64,000 bases of DNA from a virus. The notes under the pieces are model-generated. The model worked only from the letters and a program-made list of their open reading frames with translations. It ran no database searches and was not told where the DNA came from. This document shows positions 3,863 to 36,791 of the stretch, piece by piece. How positions within the stretch are numbered: the first letter of the stretch is position 1; the number at the start of each line of letters is the position of its first letter. Made by a program: the position numbers and the translations under genes. The stretch spans positions 64,001 through 128,000 of IMG/VR virus record IMGVR_UViG_3300025030_000046. One strand, written 5' to 3'.

Positions 3863-4057
3863 TTAACCATCTACAAGCACATCTTCGTCTGTAAAATAAG
3901 GTTCTATTGTAATAGTGATTTCATTTACCTCAAAATCTTCATGCTCAATCATTTCTGGATGCTTTTCTTTCACGATGTTTACCGCATCAATTCTATCTTT
4001 CGCTGAAAGCACTAAGATATTAAATCTTGTTCTTTTGAAAGATACTACATATTTCAA
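3863..4057 (-). CDS. small hypothetical protein
   Basis: 64-aa ORF coupled to upstream ORF. Confidence 0.5.
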   Translation of the reverse strand: MKYVVSFKRTRFNILVLSAKDRIDAVNIVKEKHPEMIEHEDFEVNEITITIEPYFTDEDVLVDG

Positions 4058-24256: not shown

Positions 24257-25351
24257 TTACTTCCCGATTTTATCCAATATATTTATAAAAACCCCAATAT
24301 CGCATTTTTTTATAGCTGCAAGCAAATCTTCTTTGCTATAATTATCTAATAAGCTTAAATCTACATCTTCATCCATAATGTAACTCAATTGACTAGTATA
24401 ACTTTTATCACCCTCTGCGTATGTTTTTATTGTTAAGCTTGGATCGCTGTGATGTCCTTGTTTTTGTGTTTTCTTAACATCTTTACTTATTTTCCAAGCC
24501 ATATTACACGAGCTTTTTTTAAGAGAATGTATTCCTATTTTTCTTTCTTCTCTATCAATATTGTATTGTTCACAAAACTTATCTAGTATTCCATATAGGT
24601 AAGTATCACTTACATCAAATATACGTTTTTTATTATCATCATCTTTTTTTAGTTGTAATAATTTTTCATAAAATTGATCGCTTATAGCTGTAGGATCTTT
24701 TTTTTCACCTTTATCTACTACTCTTATAATCCAAACCATTTTTCCAGTTTCAATATCTTCTTCTCTTTTGATATCTTTCCATAACATATCTAATACTGCG
24801 GATTTTCTAATTCCAGTAACATAGCAAGCTTGGAAATACAATGACGCAATTAATCCCTTGCCCCTGTAGGTATAAGTTTCCGAAAAACTATATAAATCTT
24901 TTCTTTCTTGATTTGAAAATGGAGAATAGCTTTCTGGGTTATCTTTAAGAGATTTCATGTAGAAAATATTTGGATCTATTTCATTATTTTTTGTACGTAG
25001 ATATTTGAATAGTGATCTTAATCCTCCTATTTTAGAGTTAATTGTACCATTAGAATTTTTTACTTTCCCAATCTTTTTACTTTCTTTTGTTGATAAGTAT
25101 GTAACAAATAGCTCTACGTCATCACTGCTTAATTTTTTTAAATCATCCCATGTTAATATGCTTAAATCTTTTCCTGTGGTGTATTCAAAGAATTCTTTAA
25201 TGTAGCCTTTGTAGCTTGATTTTGTACAATCACTTTCTTGTTTATCTAAAAACATATTAATGTAGCTATATACAGAATTATTTTTGAATCCTATAACCAT
25301 TGCTCTTGACACTTTCATTTCTTCTAACTGTGTCATAATTATTTCCTCCAA
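24257..25351 (-). CDS. tyrosine recombinase/integrase family (possibly YopP/SroD-like)
   Basis: SAM-like N-domain, TGIRKS, DKGEK, HSLKK (Arg to Lys), GHHS, TIKTY. Confidence 0.8.
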   Translation of the reverse strand: MEEIIMTQLEEMKVSRAMVIGFKNNSVYSYINMFLDKQESDCTKSSYKGYIKEFFEYTTGKDLSILTWDDLKKLSSDDVELFVTYLSTKESKKIGKVKNSNGTINSKIGGLRSLFKYLRTKNNEIDPNIFYMKSLKDNPESYSPFSNQERKDLYSFSETYTYRGKGLIASLYFQACYVTGIRKSAVLDMLWKDIKREEDIETGKMVWIIRVVDKGEKKDPTAISDQFYEKLLQLKKDDDNKKRIFDVSDTYLYGILDKFCEQYNIDREERKIGIHSLKKSSCNMAWKISKDVKKTQKQGHHSDPSLTIKTYAEGDKSYTSQLSYIMDEDVDLSLLDNYSKEDLLAAIKKCDIGVFINILDKIGK

Positions 25352-26121: not shown

Positions 26122-27039
26122 ATGCTTGTTTGTAAAGTTGGAGATAAAGAAGTTAATACTATTGATTTTAATGGTAGTGATTTACGTTCGTGGTCAAATA
26201 AGAAAATTTTAAAATGTCCTATTTGCGACAATAAACTAATATATAAAAATGGATTAGTAAAAATACCTCATTTTGCTCATGTAAGTAATGATGATTGTCA
26301 TGATATTTATTATGAGAATGAAACCAAAGAGCATATGATGGGTAAGATGATTTTATATAAGTGGCTAAAAGAATTTCCTGATATTAAAGTTTGCAAATTA
26401 GAGGGATGGATTCCTGAAACTAAACAGAGACCAGATATATATTTAGAATTACAAGATGGTACAAAAATAGTGATTGAATTTCAGTGTACCCCAATAACAT
26501 TAGAGCAATATTTAAATAGGCATGACTTATATAGATTAATTGGCATTAATGATTTTTGGATATTAGGAACCGATAAGTATAAGTTGTTTAAATCTCAAAA
26601 AGGTAGACTAAGGGTATTACAAGAAGAATTGTTAAAAGAAAATAACTATGCTCTACATTTAGATTCATATAATGAGAAAATTTATAAATATTTTAATCTA
26701 AAAGAATTTAGAAATATTAACAAAAATATAAAAGATGTATTGTTTGATTATGATAATGTTTTTAATTTTAATATTGGTGATAATGTAGACATTTATGATC
26801 CATTTGAATACATGAAAGAAAAGTGTAAACAAGGTTATTTTCAAAGTAATAAAGATATGAATTTCCCGTTGTATAGAGTTTTAGAAAATACAACGGAAGA
26901 TAAATATGTAATTATAGGTGATTTCAAATACGAAAACCAAGCAAAGAATTATATTAATATGTATATAAAAGAACTTAGAAATAATTTTAAAATTATTAAA
27001 ATAGAAAAAGGAGATAGCTATGGGATCAGTAAAAATTGA
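26122..27039 (+). CDS. CoiA-like Zn-ribbon/PD-(D/E)xK nuclease
   Basis: CPIC...PHFAH, ETKEHMMGK, QRPDI, IEFQC motifs. Confidence 0.85.
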   Translation: MLVCKVGDKEVNTIDFNGSDLRSWSNKKILKCPICDNKLIYKNGLVKIPHFAHVSNDDCHDIYYENETKEHMMGKMILYKWLKEFPDIKVCKLEGWIPETKQRPDIYLELQDGTKIVIEFQCTPITLEQYLNRHDLYRLIGINDFWILGTDKYKLFKSQKGRLRVLQEELLKENNYALHLDSYNEKIYKYFNLKEFRNINKNIKDVLFDYDNVFNFNIGDNVDIYDPFEYMKEKCKQGYFQSNKDMNFPLYRVLENTTEDKYVIIGDFKYENQAKNYINMYIKELRNNFKIIKIEKGDSYGISKN

Positions 27040-28069
27040 TATTTATAAAGATGATAAAAAGTATTATGATACTTCGTATTCAAGTGAAGAGGATATATAT
27101 GACATTTTGTGGTTATTGGATATTATTCTTCAAGATGCACAAAAAGGAAATAAAGAAGCTTTAATTACTTTAAGAGATTTAAACAATTTAGATACAAAAT
27201 ATAATCCAGTATTTGATGAATATTGCTATATTCAAATGGGGTTTAGACCTATGAAACTTGAAGACCAAGGAAAAGAAATAATAGAAGTTGTAGCTAAAAG
27301 ACTAAATATGACAAAAGAAGAGTGTGAACGTAAGATGTTAGTTGCGGTATTACATATCAAGAAAACAAATTTAAACAATTGGTATGACTACATTAATAAA
27401 AATTATAAAAGTCATATAATTGCTGCGAGAAAAAAGAATTTTGTTGATTATCTTATATCTTTACCCAAAATAACTTTAGCCAGTCATGATGGGAGCAATA
27501 TTACGTCTGAGAGCTTGTGGCAGGTCGACTACTGCAAGAAATATGTAGTGGCTAAACATATTTACAAAGGAGATACTTATCCTGAAGATTTTCAAGAGTT
27601 AATTGAATTGCAAGGGAAAAATGAAATACTGGTTAAAGCTCTAAGTAAGAATAAAGATAAGACAAAAAACGAGAAAACAGAGTTAAGTAAAAGAATTAAG
27701 TTACAAAAGACATTGCAAGAAGATATTAATATTTTAAAAGATCATTATAGAATACCTAGAAATCATTATTATACCGAAAGTCAAGATGTTAGTTATAAAG
27801 AATTAATGTATTATAAGAAAAAATTGCCGCCACACGAAGAATATATTGAGCGAGAGTATGACAGTACAGAAGTATTAGATGAATGGCAAATAGAAAAAAT
27901 AAAAGATATAGCTAATAAAATTTTAACCAAAAGGCAGTTGGTTGTATTTAGTCTTTATTATGAGTCTAGATTAACTCAACGAGAGATAGCGAACATTCTC
28001 ACCGAAGACCAAGGTAATATTGCTCATGACTTAAAAAGAATTATAAAAAAAATTAAAGAAAATATATAA
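27020..28069 (+). CDS. protein with C-terminal sigma70 region-4 HTH (candidate transcription activator)
   Basis: LTKRQLVVFSLYYESRLTQREIANIL...LKRIIKKI. Confidence 0.65.
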   Translation: MGSVKIDIYKDDKKYYDTSYSSEEDIYDILWLLDIILQDAQKGNKEALITLRDLNNLDTKYNPVFDEYCYIQMGFRPMKLEDQGKEIIEVVAKRLNMTKEECERKMLVAVLHIKKTNLNNWYDYINKNYKSHIIAARKKNFVDYLISLPKITLASHDGSNITSESLWQVDYCKKYVVAKHIYKGDTYPEDFQELIELQGKNEILVKALSKNKDKTKNEKTELSKRIKLQKTLQEDINILKDHYRIPRNHYYTESQDVSYKELMYYKKKLPPHEEYIEREYDSTEVLDEWQIEKIKDIANKILTKRQLVVFSLYYESRLTQREIANILTEDQGNIAHDLKRIIKKIKENI

Positions 28070-28137
28070 AATGTTACATATTTTTGTAAGAGTGTATCCC
28101 TATATATGTAGGGGTAATTAATAATTGGAGGATATTA

Positions 28138-28941
28138 ATGTATTTAATATTATATAACAATACAAATATGAAATTAGAGTTATTCCCAACATTTAATGAA
28201 AGAGTTGAATATATAAATGAAAACTTATTCAACAATAAGGAACACGAAACATATTATAATATTTGCTCTAGAAACTTTAGTAATAAAGATCAGATAAAAA
28301 ATATAGAAAACAGATGGCTAGGTATTAAAGTTGTAAACAAACCTAATAAGGATGAAAAGTTAAAAGCCACTCTGAATTATATAGCTGGATATCTCTTAGG
28401 AGCAAAAGAGTATTCGATAAATAGCAAAATTAGAAGATATCTTGAATTGTCAAGATTGTCTGAACCAACTAAAAATGAGTTGGTGGAATTAAATAGTTTA
28501 AAAAACAATGTACTGTATTGTAAGAATTATAAAGCTAGAGATAACAGAAAAGATTTGATAATTATGATTAACTCTCATATGGAAGAACTCTTAAAGTACA
28601 ATTTGGATAAGCTAGAACAGATAGAAAACAGAGAGTACACAGAACAGTTTATGCATGACTACACTATTGACAGATTAAATGTTTGCAATGACATAAAAGA
28701 TAAAATATTAAGCATCGTGGATATCTTGCAAACTAACATAATTAAAAAAGAAACCCTATTCAGAGAAATACAAACTGAATATAAAAACATTCAGAACTCT
28801 GAGGATACAATAAAATATATTTCTAACATAATAAAAGATATAAAAAAAATATATTCAGACAATGTTTACTTAGAAAAGCAGATTGAATATCTAAATGATG
28901 AGTATTTAATGGCAACAGAATTCATTTATAATAACAATTAA
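28138..28941 (+). CDS. hypothetical protein
   Basis: 267-aa ORF with GGAGG RBS. Confidence 0.6.
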   Translation: MYLILYNNTNMKLELFPTFNERVEYINENLFNNKEHETYYNICSRNFSNKDQIKNIENRWLGIKVVNKPNKDEKLKATLNYIAGYLLGAKEYSINSKIRRYLELSRLSEPTKNELVELNSLKNNVLYCKNYKARDNRKDLIIMINSHMEELLKYNLDKLEQIENREYTEQFMHDYTIDRLNVCNDIKDKILSIVDILQTNIIKKETLFREIQTEYKNIQNSEDTIKYISNIIKDIKKIYSDNVYLEKQIEYLNDEYLMATEFIYNNN

Positions 28942-29464
28942 AAACATAAAAGCTAACCCATTCTTACAGCCTTTTTAAGCGACTAAAATGCTTAAACGTA
29001 AAAGTATTCACGAAAAATTTTTTCATTTAACTATGGAGCTGTCAGAAAAACTCCATTTTTGAAAGTGGCTTGGCTGTAGGGTTTCAAAATGGCAAAATAA
29101 CGTTATTTTTAACGACGAGGTTCTGATATTATGGCAAAAGAAAAAGAAGAGTTTTTTACTCCTGAACGTTGCTTAAATTGTTTAGGAAAATGTAAAAAAG
29201 AAATGAATGTAATTTTTAAAGATGGATTTGAAAATGGTAGAAATAAAATACTGTGTGGCAAACAAGTAAAAACTAAAAAGGGGAATAAACTTGAAGCAAA
29301 TTAGTAAAGAGCTATTTCTAAAAGCGATTAAGGTTGGCAGAAGAGATTTAGTAGCTAAGACGAAGAATAAACATTATGGAATTGACAAAATTGAGTATGA
29401 AATAAGAAGGTTTATTAAGTAAAATATAAAATAATGAATAAAAGGGATTAAAGGAGAGAAAATT

Positions 29465-30097
29465 ATGGAGATGAGTATTACTAGAGGTTTATCTGAACTG
29501 AAACTACTTAAAGACAGAATAGAGCGAAAAATACAATCATCAAAGTATATCGTAGGCAATAAGAAAAGCAATAAGAAGATAGATGGGATTTATAGCAAGG
29601 AAGATTTGATTACTACAATAAAAGCTGACTATCAAAGTGTGCTAGATTTAATTAACAGAAGGAAAATAATTAAGTCCGAAATAGTTAAATCAAACGCTAA
29701 TACTATAGTTAAAATTTCTGGAAAAGAAATGACTGTTGCTGAAGCTATTGAAAGAAAAGAATCAATTCAATTTGAAAAGACTCTACTTAACACTATGGAG
29801 CAACACTATAGATTGGCAATTGCAAAAGTTGCATCTGAAAATGAAAAAGTACAAATAAATTTAGACAATCTGCTTAATACCACATTTGGTAAAGAGAATA
29901 AAAATAAGACGGCAGATAATGAGATTAAAATGATTTCAGAACCTTATCTTGAGCAGAATGAGTGGGAAGTAATTAATCCACTGAAGTTGCAAGATGAAAT
30001 AGAGAAATTAAAGACTGACATAGAAGACTTTTTGAACGAAGTGGACTTCATCCTATCGGAGTCAAACACGATTACTAAGATTCAGATACCTGAATAA
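29465..30097 (+). CDS. coiled-coil protein, DIP1984/DUF6847-like
   Basis: MSITRGLSELKLLKDRI N-terminus, MTVAEAIERK, EVDFILSESNTITKI C-terminus; strong RBS. Confidence 0.7.
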   Translation: MEMSITRGLSELKLLKDRIERKIQSSKYIVGNKKSNKKIDGIYSKEDLITTIKADYQSVLDLINRRKIIKSEIVKSNANTIVKISGKEMTVAEAIERKESIQFEKTLLNTMEQHYRLAIAKVASENEKVQINLDNLLNTTFGKENKNKTADNEIKMISEPYLEQNEWEVINPLKLQDEIEKLKTDIEDFLNEVDFILSESNTITKIQIPE

Positions 30098-30110
30098 ACA
30101 GTTTAATATT

Positions 30111-30417
30111 TTGTAGTTATCCGAAAACTATAGACTTAAATCACCCAATTCTTCAGGGTATATTGAAGAAACAAGAAGAAAAATTAAGTTCTATATTCAA
30201 ATGGTGAATATTGATTTTATTATCTAATACTTACGTATACACGTAATAATGCGTAAAAGCTCAAAGATTAAATTTCAATATTTAAAGTTTAGAATTTAAA
30301 GCTCTTTTTGATTAAAGTTATAAATCATAAGTCTAAAAGTTCGATGAAATCCAAGATAAAAGGTTTAAGTGTTGATTTAATTGACTTATAGTAATCCTCT
30401 TGGCTGGATAGTTACAA
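30111..30417 (+). ncRNA. putative structured ncRNA with heptanucleotide repeats
   Basis: 5' TTGTAGTTATCC pairs with 3' GGATAGTTACAA (12 bp, two G-U); internal hairpins; seven consecutive AAAGYTY-like 7-mers at 30256-30304; no ORF. Confidence 0.7.
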
Positions 30418-30470
30418 GTAAATTTTATAGATTAGTAAAAATATAAAAGGAATTAAAGGAGATTAATATT

Positions 30471-30650
30471 ATGGCAAAGGCAAAGATAAAAACATCAGAC
30501 TCAATATCTGTAGAGGGATACTTCGATAATGATAACTTGGCAATAGAAGTGGATGATATAGGTGTTAAAAATTTAAAAGATTTATTTATAAAATATAATG
30601 GTGAATACGTTACCATAACTATAAAGAAAAAAGATGAAATTATGAAATAA
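30471..30650 (+). CDS. yonK: YonK-like protein (59 aa, below ORF-track cutoff)
   Basis: MAKAKIKTSDSISVEGYFDNDNLAIEVDDIGVKNLKDLFIKYNGEYVTITIKKKDEIMK resembles SPbeta YonK; syntenic position. Confidence 0.6.
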   Translation: MAKAKIKTSDSISVEGYFDNDNLAIEVDDIGVKNLKDLFIKYNGEYVTITIKKKDEIMK

Positions 30651-30761
30651 GAGGCGGATTATGCCATTTGACTTACTTTATGGTAAGAATGAGAAAACTG
30701 GAGACCCCTTACCTTATAAGTAGGGAACGTTAAATTAAGCAAGGTAGAAAACAAAACTACC

Positions 30762-31730
30762 TTGCTTTTCTATTATAAAAATTTAAGAATAAAGGAGTGT
30801 ATTCGTATAGAATCACTAATTGAAACTTGCTATAAAAAAATTAATCATGAAATTGATGATTCTTGGGATGATTTAGCTAAGAAGTATGGATTTAAGAATA
30901 ATGAAGCCATTCGTTGTTGGTTTAAAAAATATAGAAATGCTACTGGAGAGATAGGTACAAAAAATAAGACAAGAATATTACATATTTCGGACATGCATTA
31001 TCCATATAATGTACCAAAAGAAGTATTTAAAGATTATATTGGAAAAGTTGATATTCTTGTAATCAATGGAGATGAACAAGATTGCCAGAGCATTAGTAAA
31101 TTTAGAAAAAAATATAGAATACCTTTTGTCGATGAGATGATTGGTACTCGTCAAATGATAATTGATATTATTGGATATATAAAACCCAAGAAAGTTATAT
31201 TAAATTATGGAAATCATAATCAAAGATTGATATCTTATTTTAGTGATAAGGTTCATGAAGATTTATTAACATTAATGCCAGAAACAAATCTAGATTTTAT
31301 AGTAGACTTGGGATTTTGGAAGCATGATCATCAAAATAAAAGTAAAACATTTTTTGAACCACTAACTAAGGTATTTGATGGTATTCTTGATATTTCTTAT
31401 TCAAAGAGTTGGTGGAGAAAAGTTGGCAAAAGCATATTTTGTCATCCAAGAGCTTATAAGAGTGGTATTTTAGGCACTGTTGAAAAATCATATCTTTATT
31501 TTCTTCAATTGGGAGAAGATTTTGACACTATAGTTATGGCGCATACTCACCAGCAAGGATTTTGTAGATATGGTAAAACATATTTATATGAGAGTGGTGC
31601 ATTATGTCACGAACAAAGTTATTCTACTGATGGCGGAATGATGAAGCCACAGAGTAAGGGTTTCGTTTATATAGTTCAAGATATATACGGTAATTTAATT
31701 TACGATGAAAGTAAAATAATTTGTTTATAA
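30762..31730 (+). CDS. calcineurin-like metallophosphoesterase with N-terminal HTH (YonJ position)
   Basis: ISDMH, NGD, GNHN, AHTH motifs. Confidence 0.8.
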   Translation: MLFYYKNLRIKECIRIESLIETCYKKINHEIDDSWDDLAKKYGFKNNEAIRCWFKKYRNATGEIGTKNKTRILHISDMHYPYNVPKEVFKDYIGKVDILVINGDEQDCQSISKFRKKYRIPFVDEMIGTRQMIIDIIGYIKPKKVILNYGNHNQRLISYFSDKVHEDLLTLMPETNLDFIVDLGFWKHDHQNKSKTFFEPLTKVFDGILDISYSKSWWRKVGKSIFCHPRAYKSGILGTVEKSYLYFLQLGEDFDTIVMAHTHQQGFCRYGKTYLYESGALCHEQSYSTDGGMMKPQSKGFVYIVQDIYGNLIYDESKIICL

Positions 31731-31760
31731 TCTAAAATATAAAAGAATAAAAGGAGAACA

Positions 31761-32120
31761 ATGATGGAATTAATCGAAAAAATAATTGTTGATGGTAACA
31801 AAATAGAGAAAAGATATTATATTAATGGAGTTTTAGTTCCAATAGAAGATTATGGTGATGCTTTGGAAGCTTGTGAAAATGAAGTAGATGAAAATTGTGG
31901 TTGTGAAAATGAGTATTCCGATTATGTTGATGAGTTGATGGATGATTGTATCGAAGACTGTATTGAAATAATGTCAAATCCAGAAGGTATTTGTGAAGAT
32001 TGCTTGAAGCGTGTTTTGCATAGTTTGTATATGGAAGGCTATAGAGAAGGTTCTATAGATGCTAGGTTGGGATTAATTGGTCAACTCAGTGATGAAATAG
32101 AAGAATTTGAAGAAGATTAA
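31761..32120 (+). CDS. acidic Cys-rich hypothetical protein
   Basis: 119 aa, strong RBS. Confidence 0.6.
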   Translation: MMELIEKIIVDGNKIEKRYYINGVLVPIEDYGDALEACENEVDENCGCENEYSDYVDELMDDCIEDCIEIMSNPEGICEDCLKRVLHSLYMEGYREGSIDARLGLIGQLSDEIEEFEED

Positions 32121-32228
32121 TAATTGAATTTTGGGTGTATAGTGCTTGTCTGTAGGTTCAGACAGGTATTTTTATGTCCAAAATTATATAAAATGTGAAT
32201 TTTAAGGAATAAAAAGGAGTGGTTTAAT

Positions 32229-33365
32229 TTGGCAAGTACAAAGAATAAAAAAGCAAGTACAGAAATATTAAGAAATTCTTGTACTTGTTGTGGAGCAAAC
32301 AACTCAAAAGATTTTTATAAAAGTTTTAATCCAATTCAAAAACAAACTCAGCAATTATCAGTTTGTAAGTCATGTGTTGAGATTGAATTCCAAAAATATT
32401 TGGGTAAATATCAAGATGGTAAACTTGCTATGTATTATTTATGTAGAAAATTTGATATCTTTTTTTGTGTAAATGCATATGAAGGGGCGGTAAATAACTC
32501 AGCAACTACTGGATGGACAATTATTCAATCATACTTTAAACAAATTAATTCTTTTAGAAATGAAGATTATGTAAGTAAGAACGGATATTTAATTACTTTT
32601 GATGAAAGTTTTGATTTTCTTGACAGAGTTTTATTGGAAAATTCAAATGATAATGAAATTAAAAGCACTAAAAAAGAAAAAACTCCAATTAATTTTTCAG
32701 ATTCAGATAAACAAAATCAAAATGATGTAATTAGATTATTAAAATATGATCCATTTATTGATGAAAGCTATGAGATAAAAGGATTCTTATATAATAAGCT
32801 GATCGATTTTCTTGATGAAAACACACTGAATGATAGTTTTAAACTTCCTATAGTAATTGAAATAGTCAAAGGATTTGGTCAAGCTGAAAAAATAAACAAA
32901 GCCTTGTCACAGATAGATATAACTAATGATATGACAAAAATAAAAGATATAAAAATTTTATCTGATACAAGAAATGATATTTTAAGAGTTACTTTAACAA
33001 TGGCTAAAGATAATGGAATATCAGAAAATTATAGTAACAATAAATCAAAAGGTGCTGGAACATTGTCTGGTATCATTAAAGACTTACAAGAAAAGGGAAT
33101 ACGTGATGCAGAAGTGAATTTATATGATATAGAAACTTGTTCGGGCATGAAACAGGTTGCTGATATTAGTAATAAAAGTATTATTCAACAATTAATGCTC
33201 AATGAAAATGACTATGTAGATATGATAAAAGATCAAAAACAGTTAATTCAAGATTTAGATGATAAATCAATTAAATTAGAAGAAGATAACAGATTATTAA
33301 AATTAAAACTAAAGGGTTTAGAATCATACTTAAAAGATAATAAAATTCTAAGGGACGAGGTATAG
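32229..33365 (+). CDS. Zn-finger protein upstream of terminase (YonG-like, candidate small terminase)
   Basis: CTCC...DFYKS...CKSC; immediately precedes the large terminase. Confidence 0.6.
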   Translation: MASTKNKKASTEILRNSCTCCGANNSKDFYKSFNPIQKQTQQLSVCKSCVEIEFQKYLGKYQDGKLAMYYLCRKFDIFFCVNAYEGAVNNSATTGWTIIQSYFKQINSFRNEDYVSKNGYLITFDESFDFLDRVLLENSNDNEIKSTKKEKTPINFSDSDKQNQNDVIRLLKYDPFIDESYEIKGFLYNKLIDFLDENTLNDSFKLPIVIEIVKGFGQAEKINKALSQIDITNDMTKIKDIKILSDTRNDILRVTLTMAKDNGISENYSNNKSKGAGTLSGIIKDLQEKGIRDAEVNLYDIETCSGMKQVADISNKSIIQQLMLNENDYVDMIKDQKQLIQDLDDKSIKLEEDNRLLKLKLKGLESYLKDNKILRDEV

Positions 33366-35276: not shown

Positions 35277-36791
35277 TTGAGTGAAGTAAAAGAAACAACA
35301 AAGATATTAACTCAAGCAGAAAAAGATAATGTGCAGTTTCAAAAATTATTGCAATTCGCAAATTTAGCTAAATATTTAAAGAAAGATTTAAATAGTACTC
35401 AACAAGTTCAATATACTTTTCATAAAAATTTCAATAAAGATGAAGTTATGAAGTGGCAAGCGAATCCTCAAAAATATGAAAAACAACTTCGCAATCTTTC
35501 AAGATTTTTATATGATACATCAAGTCATTATAAACGCTTGGTTCAATATTTTGCGACAATGTTAACTTTTGATTATTATATAGAGCCTTACGGAATGACT
35601 GACTTTGAACCTACTAAAGAATCAATTTTAAAAGTTCAAAAGAAATATATAAGCATAGTAAATTTATTAGAAGTAATGAATTTAAAGCATGAGTTTTTAA
35701 AGGTGTGTGAAAGAGCATGGATAGACGATGTTTGCTATTTTTATGAGTATAATATGTCAGATTCATATTTTTTAATGAATTTAAATCCAGACTATTGTCA
35801 AATTAGCGGAATAGAGGATGGGTCATTGACATTTAGCTATGACTTTTCATTTTTCACTACATATCCTAAAGAATTGGATAAATATGCAGAAGAATTTAAA
35901 ACAAAATATGAATTATATAAAAGTGATAATAAAAAATATAAATGGCAGGAAATAGACCCTTCTAAAAGTTTATGTATTAAAGTTGCCGAAAATGTTGATT
36001 ATCCGATTCCTCCATTTGCAGGATTAGCTGAAGAAGTATGGGCGTTAGAGGATTATAAATCTTTAAAATTATCAAAAACTGAAATGGAAAATTATTTATT
36101 ATTAATAGCAAAGATTCCATATTTAAAGGAGTCAGGAGTTGCTAATAATTTTGCTTTAGAAATAAATAAAGCAATAGAATATTTTGATCTTATGATGGGT
36201 AGTCTTCCCGACCAGTGTGGTGGATTACTTTCGCCCTTTGAGAGCGTAGAGGCAGTTAAGGTTGATAAAAACGATAAAGATAATGATAAAGTTAGCGAAG
36301 CTCAAAAATCATTATATGATGCAGCAGGGGTATCCTCATCATTATTTAATAGTGACGGGTCAGCTGCCACTGTATCTAAAAGTATTTTGGTTGATGAAAA
36401 TGTTGTGTTTAAGGTGTTGCGTCAACTAGAACGCTGGATTAATAAGAGACTTAAAGATGAAAACAAAGTTATTAAATTTAAAGTGCAGTTTATCGATATT
36501 ACTAGATTTAATCAAAATGATTACATTAAAAATTTAAAAGAAGCTGCTACATTGGGACTTCCAGTAAAACTAAAATATAATTCGGCAATTGGGCAATCTC
36601 CGAGTTCCGCAATACATATGGAATTTTTAGAAAATTCGGTATTGGGCATTTCAGAAAAATGGATTCCATTACAATCTAGTCATACAACTAGTGGAGATGG
36701 CGGAAGACCTACGGTTGATGAAGGTAAATTATCCGAATCTGGAGCGAAAACAAAGGAAAATGACTCAAATAACAAAGAGGCGAGAAATTAA
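35277..36791 (+). CDS. portal protein (YonE-like)
   Basis: Position after terL, 504 aa, C-terminal PLQSSHT...GGRP. Confidence 0.8.
   Translation: MSEVKETTKILTQAEKDNVQFQKLLQFANLAKYLKKDLNSTQQVQYTFHKNFNKDEVMKWQANPQKYEKQLRNLSRFLYDTSSHYKRLVQYFATMLTFDYYIEPYGMTDFEPTKESILKVQKKYISIVNLLEVMNLKHEFLKVCERAWIDDVCYFYEYNMSDSYFLMNLNPDYCQISGIEDGSLTFSYDFSFFTTYPKELDKYAEEFKTKYELYKSDNKKYKWQEIDPSKSLCIKVAENVDYPIPPFAGLAEEVWALEDYKSLKLSKTEMENYLLLIAKIPYLKESGVANNFALEINKAIEYFDLMMGSLPDQCGGLLSPFESVEAVKVDKNDKDNDKVSEAQKSLYDAAGVSSSLFNSDGSAATVSKSILVDENVVFKVLRQLERWINKRLKDENKVIKFKVQFIDITRFNQNDYIKNLKEAATLGLPVKLKYNSAIGQSPSSAIHMEFLENSVLGISEKWIPLQSSHTTSGDGGRPTVDEGKLSESGAKTKENDSNNKEARN

Follow-up and report, generated by a model that had tools for sequence, protein, structure and literature searches.

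A heptad-repeat RNA encoded behind phrog_1491 genes of phages and bacteria, a candidate ribonucleoprotein module

Several described systems invite comparison with the locus analyzed here. The Y RNA gene adjoins the Ro60/Rsr gene, the 5′ and 3′ ends of Y RNA form a closing stem, and the pair is scattered over bacteria and phages. HutP binds hut mRNA at sites spaced every 7 nucleotides (nt), and TRAP binds the trp leader at units of fixed spacing, one per subunit. The sponge RNAs CsrB and RsmZ carry GGA in irregularly spaced hairpin loops and bind CsrA, and in ToxIN, a terminator stands between an array of ~36-nt repeats and the gene for an endoribonuclease toxin downstream of it. Here, we analyze a 64,000-nt stretch of the virus record IMGVR_UViG_3300025030_000046 (positions 64,001 to 128,000 of the record; hereafter, the window), in which the gene for a 210-amino acid (aa) protein of the family phrog_1491 (29465-30097) is followed by a 309-nt element, the heptad-repeat RNA (30110-30418); both are on the + strand, as are all window features below unless indicated otherwise. 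Comparison with relatives indicates that this element is a real structured RNA and one member of a large family, and that its linkage to the protein gene is near-obligate across phages and bacteria, and it establishes the structure, strand and periodicity of the RNA. The heptad-repeat RNA is widespread, protein-linked and essentially undescribed.

The module resembles each of the described systems in part. As with the Y RNAs (YrlA; RF02553), the RNA stands next to a protein gene, is closed by a stem of its own ends and has a modular second half, which in some relatives holds a permuted tRNA mimic; unlike in Y RNAs, the partner gene encodes an unrelated helical protein of 210 aa, a heptad track is part of the knotted RNA, and the window copy has no tRNA-like module. 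YrlA gave no match in the window region at E ≤10, and Pfam searches with the window protein and with 38 family members found neither TROVE/Ro60 nor HutP or TrpBP. The HutP and TRAP sites share with the track short units, fixed spacing and unpaired RNA, but they belong to cis-acting leaders with UAG or GAG triplets bound by beta-rich rings, whereas here a stand-alone knotted RNA carries AAAGnUC-like units next to a predicted helical dimer. CsrB and RsmZ likewise repeat a short motif many times along a single noncoding RNA, but the GGA motif and the CsrA partner are absent here. Like ToxIN, the module combines a repeat RNA and an adjacent protein in a short cassette of phages and bacteria, but the units are 7 nt long, are embedded in a folded RNA, and lie downstream of a helical protein.

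The linkage was quantified with a covariance model, R1, that contains three helices and was built from 20 seed elements (alignment A4). These seeds are 20 of the 22 elements of at most 322 nt (L046 and L073 were omitted by choice, the alignment being made to fit 400 columns), drawn from a pool of 48 nonredundant sequences among 55 elements scoring at least 22 for the closing helix, P1. R1 matched 90 of the 91 phage sources, in each case once, on the strand of the gene and directly after the phrog_1491 gene; 20 of the matching sources were seeds, and among the nonseed phage sources the count is 70 of 71. The single miss among the phages is L022, where the parts of the RNA are still legible by eye. 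Among 80 loci drawn by protein similarity from bacterial and archaeal genome bins, none of them seeds, 78 matched R1, and the two misses gave weak, correctly placed matches with the filters off. The R1 match starts ~10-150 nt past the end of the tblastn match, and the measured gaps between the stop codon and P1 span 8-85 nt. The window copy, itself a seed, matches by construction (30109-30419, 206.9 bits, model positions 1-308), and this match is unique both in the 64-kb window and in the entire virus record.

The partner protein is encoded in 745 phage records by tblastn, including T5-like, FelixO1-like, rV5-like, Bastille-like, Lactococcus 949-like, Vibrio and clostridial phages. In all nine annotated phage records examined, a stretch of 364-1233 nt behind the gene bears no annotation, and those stretches that were read, that of a T5 relative included, each contain the same RNA parts. 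Six viral contigs encode the protein, and two of these, at only 56-59% protein identity, keep the element, with compensatory changes in the closing helix. An earlier note on this DNA had held that its candidate ribonucleoprotein system should be dropped if homologues lacked the downstream end pairing and the heptad period; the opposite was seen in the family alignment, and the RNA follows the gene across phages and bacterial genomes. In the contig IMGVR_UViG_3300024999_000029 (349,050 bases), two copies of the module occur, at ~243 kb (L001) and ~86 kb (L003), with proteins 94% and 92% identical to that of the window, respectively; this contig may join two related phages. In L181, from a bin labelled Parabacteroides, two R1 matches (2125-2421 and 2451-2779) stand in tandem behind one protein gene.

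Bacterial chromosomes contain the pair as well. In Lysinibacillus, it sits alone among genes for an MFS transporter, fumarase and a TRAM/U5-methyltransferase, and in Bacillus safensis, among genes for an amino acid permease, homocysteine methyltransferase and a subtilase; in Pseudobacteroides, it adjoins a TOTE conflict-system primase-helicase and a SUKH-1 gene. The chromosomal copies examined are outside prophages. Given that the pair stands alone between chromosomal housekeeping genes, it is an autonomous two-part cassette.

All coordinates and strings of the locus quoted in the earlier note are present in the window where it placed them, and the closing helix that it proposed between TTGTAGTTATCC (30111-22) and GGATAGTTACAA (30406-17), with two G-U pairs required, is real. 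Family-wide, this helix, P1, comprises 14 pairs between a 5′ arm (30110-30123, including G30123) and a 3′ arm (30405-30418) with the conserved GGC of GGCUG before it; 97.3% of the cells are paired, and 13 of the pairs show changes on both sides. The 5′ arm leads into a conserved GAAAAC junction (30123-30128) in alignments A4 and A5, of which G, A and A are invariant in A4. Near the 3′ end, after a conserved AAAUCC, the inner CCNNG/CNNGG helix, P3, joins CCAAG (30351-30355) to CTTGG (30399-30403); it is 99.0% paired, with both-side changes in four of the five pairs, so that the previously noted CCAAGA/TCTTGG pairing is borne out in a slightly shorter, covarying form. Between the strands of P3 lies the 3′ hairpin (30367-30387; stem AAGT/ACTT), each of whose three modelled pairs has changed on both sides (87.4% paired). 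Across the 79 distinct rows of alignment A5, 96.4% of the cells in P1, P3 and the 3′ hairpin are standard pairs, and 20 of the 22 pairs are double-changed. None of 500 shuffles reaches the observed values, and partners slid along the alignment pair in only 33-45% of the cells; these shuffle counts overstate significance, because A5 was fitted to R1, into which these three helices had been built, and because the sequences are related. Covariation among homologues, a check that the earlier note had recommended, thus reveals end pairing that is retained with compensatory changes.

Two pseudoknots that are absent from R1 were nonetheless recovered. The first, PK2, pairs TTAAATC (30136-30142) with GATTTAA (30374-30380), which is located in the loop of the 3′ hairpin and likewise covaries; all seven pairs have changed on both sides, and 74.4% of the cells are paired. 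The second, PK1, is an H-type pseudoknot (30143-30170) with stem S1 formed by ACCC (30143-30146) and GGGT (30156-30159), and stem S2 formed by TTCTTCA (30149-30155) and TGAAGAA (30164-30170). Counts for PK1 and for the periodicity refer to 77 of the 79 distinct rows, those having the anchor column. In a constrained script search, the PK1 topology was present in 75 of these 77 sequences, and in 65 of the 77 at most 5 of 100 shuffles were as good; the window copy scores 27, a value that 0 of 100 shuffles equal. Stem S1 varies freely among relatives, for instance, GGC/GCC, CCTG/CAGG and GCGTCC/GGACGT.

This architecture reassigns some of the pairings listed previously. The TTCTTCA/TGAAGAA stem was correctly identified and corresponds to S2, but the stem TATAGACTTAA/TTAAGTTCTATA (30129-39/30184-95) is not conserved, its 5′ strand pairing instead with the loop of the 3′ hairpin (30136-42/30374-80). 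Similarly, the suggested TCACC/GGTGA pseudoknot is unconserved (L001 has AATGA in place of GGTGA, with TCACC unchanged), the true stem being ACCC/GGGT. The TTACGT/ACGTAA stem falls in the variable insert (30171-30254) and was not confirmed as conserved; in the window copy, this insert contains local hairpins only, and its columns are poorly aligned in alignments A1, A4 and A5.

The insert is followed by the heptad array (30256-30348), which consists of ~13 units with the consensus AAAGnTC/AAAGnTn. The earlier note correctly described seven contiguous heptamers (30256-30304) followed by degenerate units, which extend to ~30348, and the 7-nt autocorrelation that it had proposed to examine is genuine in the window and in the family. 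In the 110 nt before the 3′ domain of the window copy, identity at lag 7 is 0.49 (z 3.7 against 200 shuffles); over the 77 rows, lags 7 and 14 show mean identities of 0.45 and 0.41, respectively, compared to 0.22-0.38 at the remaining lags, and z exceeds 3 at lag 7 in 52 rows. The register is preserved across the family alignment as AAAGTTC AAAGnTn AAAGnTC and so on, terminating in AAAGnTC nATnAAATCC, and the track is free of any conserved pairing in that alignment. A weak point is the output of Tandem Repeats Finder, which reports just 4.3 copies, at 30270-30300.

The strand follows from the nature of the pairs. P1 includes ~194 G-U or U-G cells (summed from the pairing table), and G30123-U30405 is GU in 73 of 77 rows; on the opposite strand, the G-U cells of P1 would be A-C mismatches, so that the strand is fixed as +. 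The window sequence alone is unpersuasive, and it is the comparison with relatives that settles the reality of the RNA. The minimum-energy fold of the single sequence includes the end pairing, with z of -1.31 for the + strand and -2.08 for the - strand, and a repeat search of the window did not return P1, because this helix contains G-U pairs.

The element has only a partial counterpart among catalogued RNAs. Permissive Rfam scans of the window region and 31 loci returned no entry for the element apart from RAGATH-27 (RF03100) in L092, that is, in 1 of the 32 sources scanned. RAGATH-27, the only piece of the family in Rfam 15, is an orphan candidate small RNA of 86 positions. Like the heptad-repeat RNA, its consensus opens with the 5′ arm of P1, which is followed by CGAAAAC and by the 5′ strand of PK2. 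Its Rfam model represents a 5′ fragment with one 7-bp hairpin and includes no P1, pseudoknots, heptads, 3′ domain or protein link. The match in L092 (2152-2235, 82.2 bits, gathering threshold 76.1) coincides with the first 86 nt of the R1 match at 2151-2477, whereas positions 28000-33000 of the window gave no RAGATH-27 match at E ≤10. By the gathering threshold of Rfam, the window RNA is therefore a homologue within a larger family, but not a RAGATH-27 member. Accordingly, the statement in the earlier note that this is no described RNA family holds for the window copy, which matches no Rfam family, and fails for a related subclade, an 86-position fragment of which is RAGATH-27. A literature search covering titles and the openings of abstracts yielded no description of the heptad-repeat RNA, and the main text of PMC5737381, whose supplements may list the motif, does not contain the term RAGATH. 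A hammerhead ribozyme, considered in view of GAAA and CUG at the junction, was rejected, given that the strand order does not fit and the Rfam ribozyme models gave no match.

The open reading frame (ORF) at 29465-30097 encodes, as previously noted, 210 aa, and the protein matches the phrog_1491 profile over residues 2-208 (E 2.1e-63). The label of this profile, 'tail fiber protein', is supported neither by the gene position nor by the predicted fold, a helical bundle of long helices with small beta elements (AF2 model; mean predicted local distance difference test [pLDDT] score 81.2, predicted template modelling score 0.74). In one phage record, the homologue is called 'putative septicolysin like protein', a name that reflects only the choice of the annotator. 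The window protein matched no Pfam family at E ≤0.1, nothing in NCBIfam at E ≤0.01 except two chance rows, and no PDB sequence better than E 0.31, leaving the 'DIP1984-like' designation of the earlier note unsupported in these searches; PADLOC also gave no match at E ≤0.1. A Foldseek search of the PDB with the AF2 model found none at E ≤0.001, the best hit of a wide VIA-align search, a syntaxin-type bundle (Z 9.3), is under the meaningful level for helical bundles, and a protein atlas search recovered only unnamed, mostly viral clusters.

Structure modelling, the sole evidence on oligomerization, predicts that the partner protein is a homodimer. The homodimer model scores 0.67, compared to 0.31 for the best of three controls; the score mark was reached by 20 of 30 proteins known as same-chain pairs and by 1 of 23 single-chain proteins, and the runs show at least 97% contact agreement, with a partner pLDDT of at least 88. 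The conserved basic residues R7, K13 and R18 are outside the listed dimer interface. Net charge is +9 for residues 16-90 and -11 for residues 151-210, and the isoelectric point is 5.8 for the window protein, with a family median of 5.5.

Given an RNA on the + strand with paired ends, a 7-nt tract and tight linkage to the gene, a ribonucleoprotein is the leading reading: the pair most likely constitutes one module in which a knotted clasp displays the repeat track as a platform for the protein, an interpretation that we hold with moderate confidence. We infer the transcription, processing, protein-RNA binding, role of the track and biological function of the pair as follows. The RNA would be transcribed with, or just behind, the gene for the 210-aa protein, and the clasp formed by P1, PK1, PK2, P3 and the 3′ hairpin would join its ends. 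Because P1 and PK2 tie the flanking domains together, the variable insert and the ~93-nt unpaired track of thirteen AAAGnUC-like 7-nt units would be presented as a closed loop, and the track would serve as a multisite binding platform for the partner protein, the predicted homodimer. As to function, RNA or tRNA metabolism and phage-host conflict are both conceivable. The predicted dimer, the conserved basic residues outside its interface and the positive charge of residues 16-90 count in favour of this reading, as does the autonomy of the pair in chromosomes. Of the ribonucleoprotein proposal in the earlier note, the end-paired, gene-linked RNA on the + strand with its 7-nt tract stands; binding to the protein would be a probable addition, and a ring or filament with one protomer per heptamer is a hypothesis, the predicted oligomer being a homodimer and the protein mildly acidic overall.

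Several observations weigh against this reading, apart from the overstated shuffle counts. The folding energy of the lone window sequence is unexceptional. The mild overall acidity of the protein is unusual for one that coats RNA, and a dimer with the predicted two-fold symmetry would have no obvious fit to a track of direct repeats. No recognizable RNA-binding domain was found by Pfam, and fold searches led to generic helical bundles only. Furthermore, Lysinibacillus contains a partial orphan RNA without a partner gene (model positions 88-293, 70.4 bits), located at G001:C1:2538309-2538509 (L187, ~2310-2510, - strand), just past the terminator of a diaminopimelate dehydrogenase gene.

A more specific version of the ribonucleoprotein reading, offered tentatively, is that the pair represents a previously unrecognised class in which a 7-nt ruler is mounted on a doubly knotted clasp, and a helical dimer or a universal host factor assembles on it in register to yield a particle of defined length, active in tRNA/RNA metabolism or phage-host conflict. 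The scope of this class, equally tentative, would extend over T5-like, FelixO1-like, Bastille-like and large clostridial phages as well as Bacillales chromosomes. If so, an unannotated RNA gene would be present in T5 relatives and in hundreds of further large phages, in a genome stretch now read as empty, paired with a mislabelled 'tail fiber' gene. A knotted RNA showing a strict 7-nt ruler would have no described counterpart among bacterial and phage RNAs, and it could point to a novel mechanism by which RNA measures or templates the assembly of proteins, or to a novel type of decoy. The practical gains are a covariance model for annotation of the RNA and a corrected name for phrog_1491, and the occurrence of a stand-alone module in culturable Bacillales and T5-like phages makes the readings testable.

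The surroundings of the RNA in relatives bear on both its ends and the alternatives. A terminator-like hairpin occurs within 60 nt past the RNA in 24 of the 79 distinct copies, and a tRNA starts within 100 nt in 11 (within 17 nt in 7 of these), which suggests a defined 3′ end; neither is close behind the RNA in 45 copies, that of the window included. In L006 (the same contig as L028), a match resembling a type-P1 twister ribozyme lies 1 base past the 3′ end of the RNA (3993-4054; 41.3 bits, E 7.7e-6, below the gathering threshold of 67.2), and this element could release the RNA by cutting. The genes downstream vary among relatives and include those for YonK-like proteins, tRNAs, gyrase and a neighbour of portal, among others. 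Of 60 loci scanned among 80 viral loci, 29 have a tRNA within 1.5 kb. In three relatives, the variable site of the RNA accommodates a permuted tRNA-like module in which a T arm, a closed acceptor stem and a D arm follow in this order (L022, 2744-2807; L064, 2204-2328; L082, 2217-2285); these modules score 44.5, 33.4 and 32.7 bits, respectively, against YrlA, all below the gathering threshold of 69.

The tRNA connection is central to an alternative that we consider unlikely yet worth keeping in view, namely, that the track acts as a sponge or decoy and captures an abundant RNA-binding factor of the host (S1, Hfq, a cold-shock protein or a ribonuclease, for instance, or an enzyme that reads anticodon or T loops), with the adjacent protein folding, protecting or loading the RNA. 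As in sponge RNAs, the track is unpaired, A/U-rich and made of ~13 repeats; its unit has the length of a tRNA loop, the GUUCAAA-like units putatively resemble a T loop, and the frequent location within tRNA clusters, the permuted tRNA-like inserts with their partial YrlA matches and the overall acidity of the partner protein all fit this view. However, conservation of the pair from phages of Gram-negative to phages of Gram-positive hosts and in chromosomes means that an outside target would have to be universal, a direct partnership explains the strict adjacency of gene and RNA more simply, and the known binding motifs (GGA, UAG/GAG triplets) are absent.

The same inserts, along with the frequent tRNA neighbours, could instead point to a Y-RNA-like quality-control or tRNA particle, which we judge to be somewhat more doubtful still. 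Here, the stem and the clasp would bind the protein, and the insert and track would recruit RNA substrates or enzymes, by analogy with the Ro60-Y RNA particle, which recruits PNPase. A closing stem of the RNA ends beside a protein gene and the sporadic distribution over phages and bacteria are as expected for such a particle; against it, the Pfam searches linked the partner to neither TROVE nor Ro60, a heptad track is not known from Y RNAs, and the window offers neither a tRNA-like insert or YrlA match nor any tRNA gene.

The cassette-like mobility of the pair raises the improbable option that it resembles a toxin-antitoxin system or serves in conflict, on the side of defence or of counter-defence, with the protein either neutralized by the repeat RNA or processing it. 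The transfer of an autonomous gene-RNA cassette between phages and chromosomes, the proximity of a repetitive RNA to its protein, and the TOTE primase-helicase and SUKH-1 neighbours in Pseudobacteroides would be in keeping with this option, but the housekeeping neighbours in Lysinibacillus and B. safensis would not. The type III toxin-antitoxin alternative raised in the earlier note is, in particular, a poor fit: the repeats are of 7 nt rather than ~34-36 nt and form part of an elaborately knotted RNA encoded downstream of the protein gene. The searches for a ToxN/AbiQ-type partner gave no Pfam or PADLOC match and led only to generic helical bundles, a result that does not exclude a family. 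Finally, the element might act in the DNA itself, as an origin, a packaging site or an array of promoters, or as an untranslated region with a role in cis, such as a leader of the gene behind it. This is suggested by its AT-rich sequence with phased A-tracts, by its location upstream of the packaging and head genes of the window and by the lack of a terminator before the next ORF there, but it is highly improbable and already largely refuted, because the compensatory changes, with their many G-U pairs, fit one strand only. Moreover, relatives do not share the same downstream genes, the RNA often has a terminator directly behind it, and chromosomal copies lie outside prophages.

Turning to the remainder of the window, 373 noncoding bases separate the partner gene from a 59-aa YonK-like ORF directly 3′ of the RNA (30471-30650; PF09642, E 4.1e-6; PDB 2h4o, E 0.011), which is followed by a 322-aa metallophosphoesterase gene (30762-31730; PF00149, E 6.2e-9; phrog_221). 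The virus record comprises 139,239 bases and is 75% complete by the CheckV estimate. An integrase-like gene on the - strand (24257-25351) diverges from the + strand block. In this block, the portal gene (35277-36791; phrog_2739, E 9e-117) begins ~5 kb beyond the gene-RNA pair, and the block also reaches the tape-measure gene; the earlier description of the pair as heading the late module is correct with regard to this position, and nothing beyond position speaks for it. There are zero tRNA genes within the 64-kb window, promoter-like sites at the locus do not exceed their chance frequency, and no terminator was found there. A blastn search of positions 29000-31000 against phage records returned two short matches, neither of which covers the RNA region. 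The sequencing runs listed as containing the sequence are all DNA runs, from groundwater and sediment metagenomes, and four of them may come from the source sample.

Additional features were observed near the module in the window and in relatives. A 349-aa ORF (27020-28069), 1.4 kb upstream of the pair, has a sigma factor-like C terminus (phrog_1190, E 1.4e-4). The order of a small YonK-like ORF and a metallophosphoesterase after the RNA (30471-31730 in the window) recurs in distant Firmicute phages (L007, 606-2008 on the - strand; L015, 4252-5451). An HU-like gene is located upstream of the module in the Clostridium phage D-1873 and in phiCDIF1296T, and in D-1873 a drum RNA (RF02958; L014, 4401-4508; 47.7 bits, gathering threshold 43) lies ~430 nt 3′ of the heptad-repeat RNA. 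Other structured RNAs near the module are a skipping-rope RNA (L089, 255-333; 71.4 bits) and a FuFi-1 RNA (L092, 1149-1321 on the - strand; 66.7 bits). A match to a group I intron in L053 (421-648; 36.2 bits) is sub-threshold. In the viral contig of L067, ARAGORN predicts a tRNA with the anticodon TTA upstream of the module (268-340), annotated as 'tRNA-Stop', a possible ochre suppressor.

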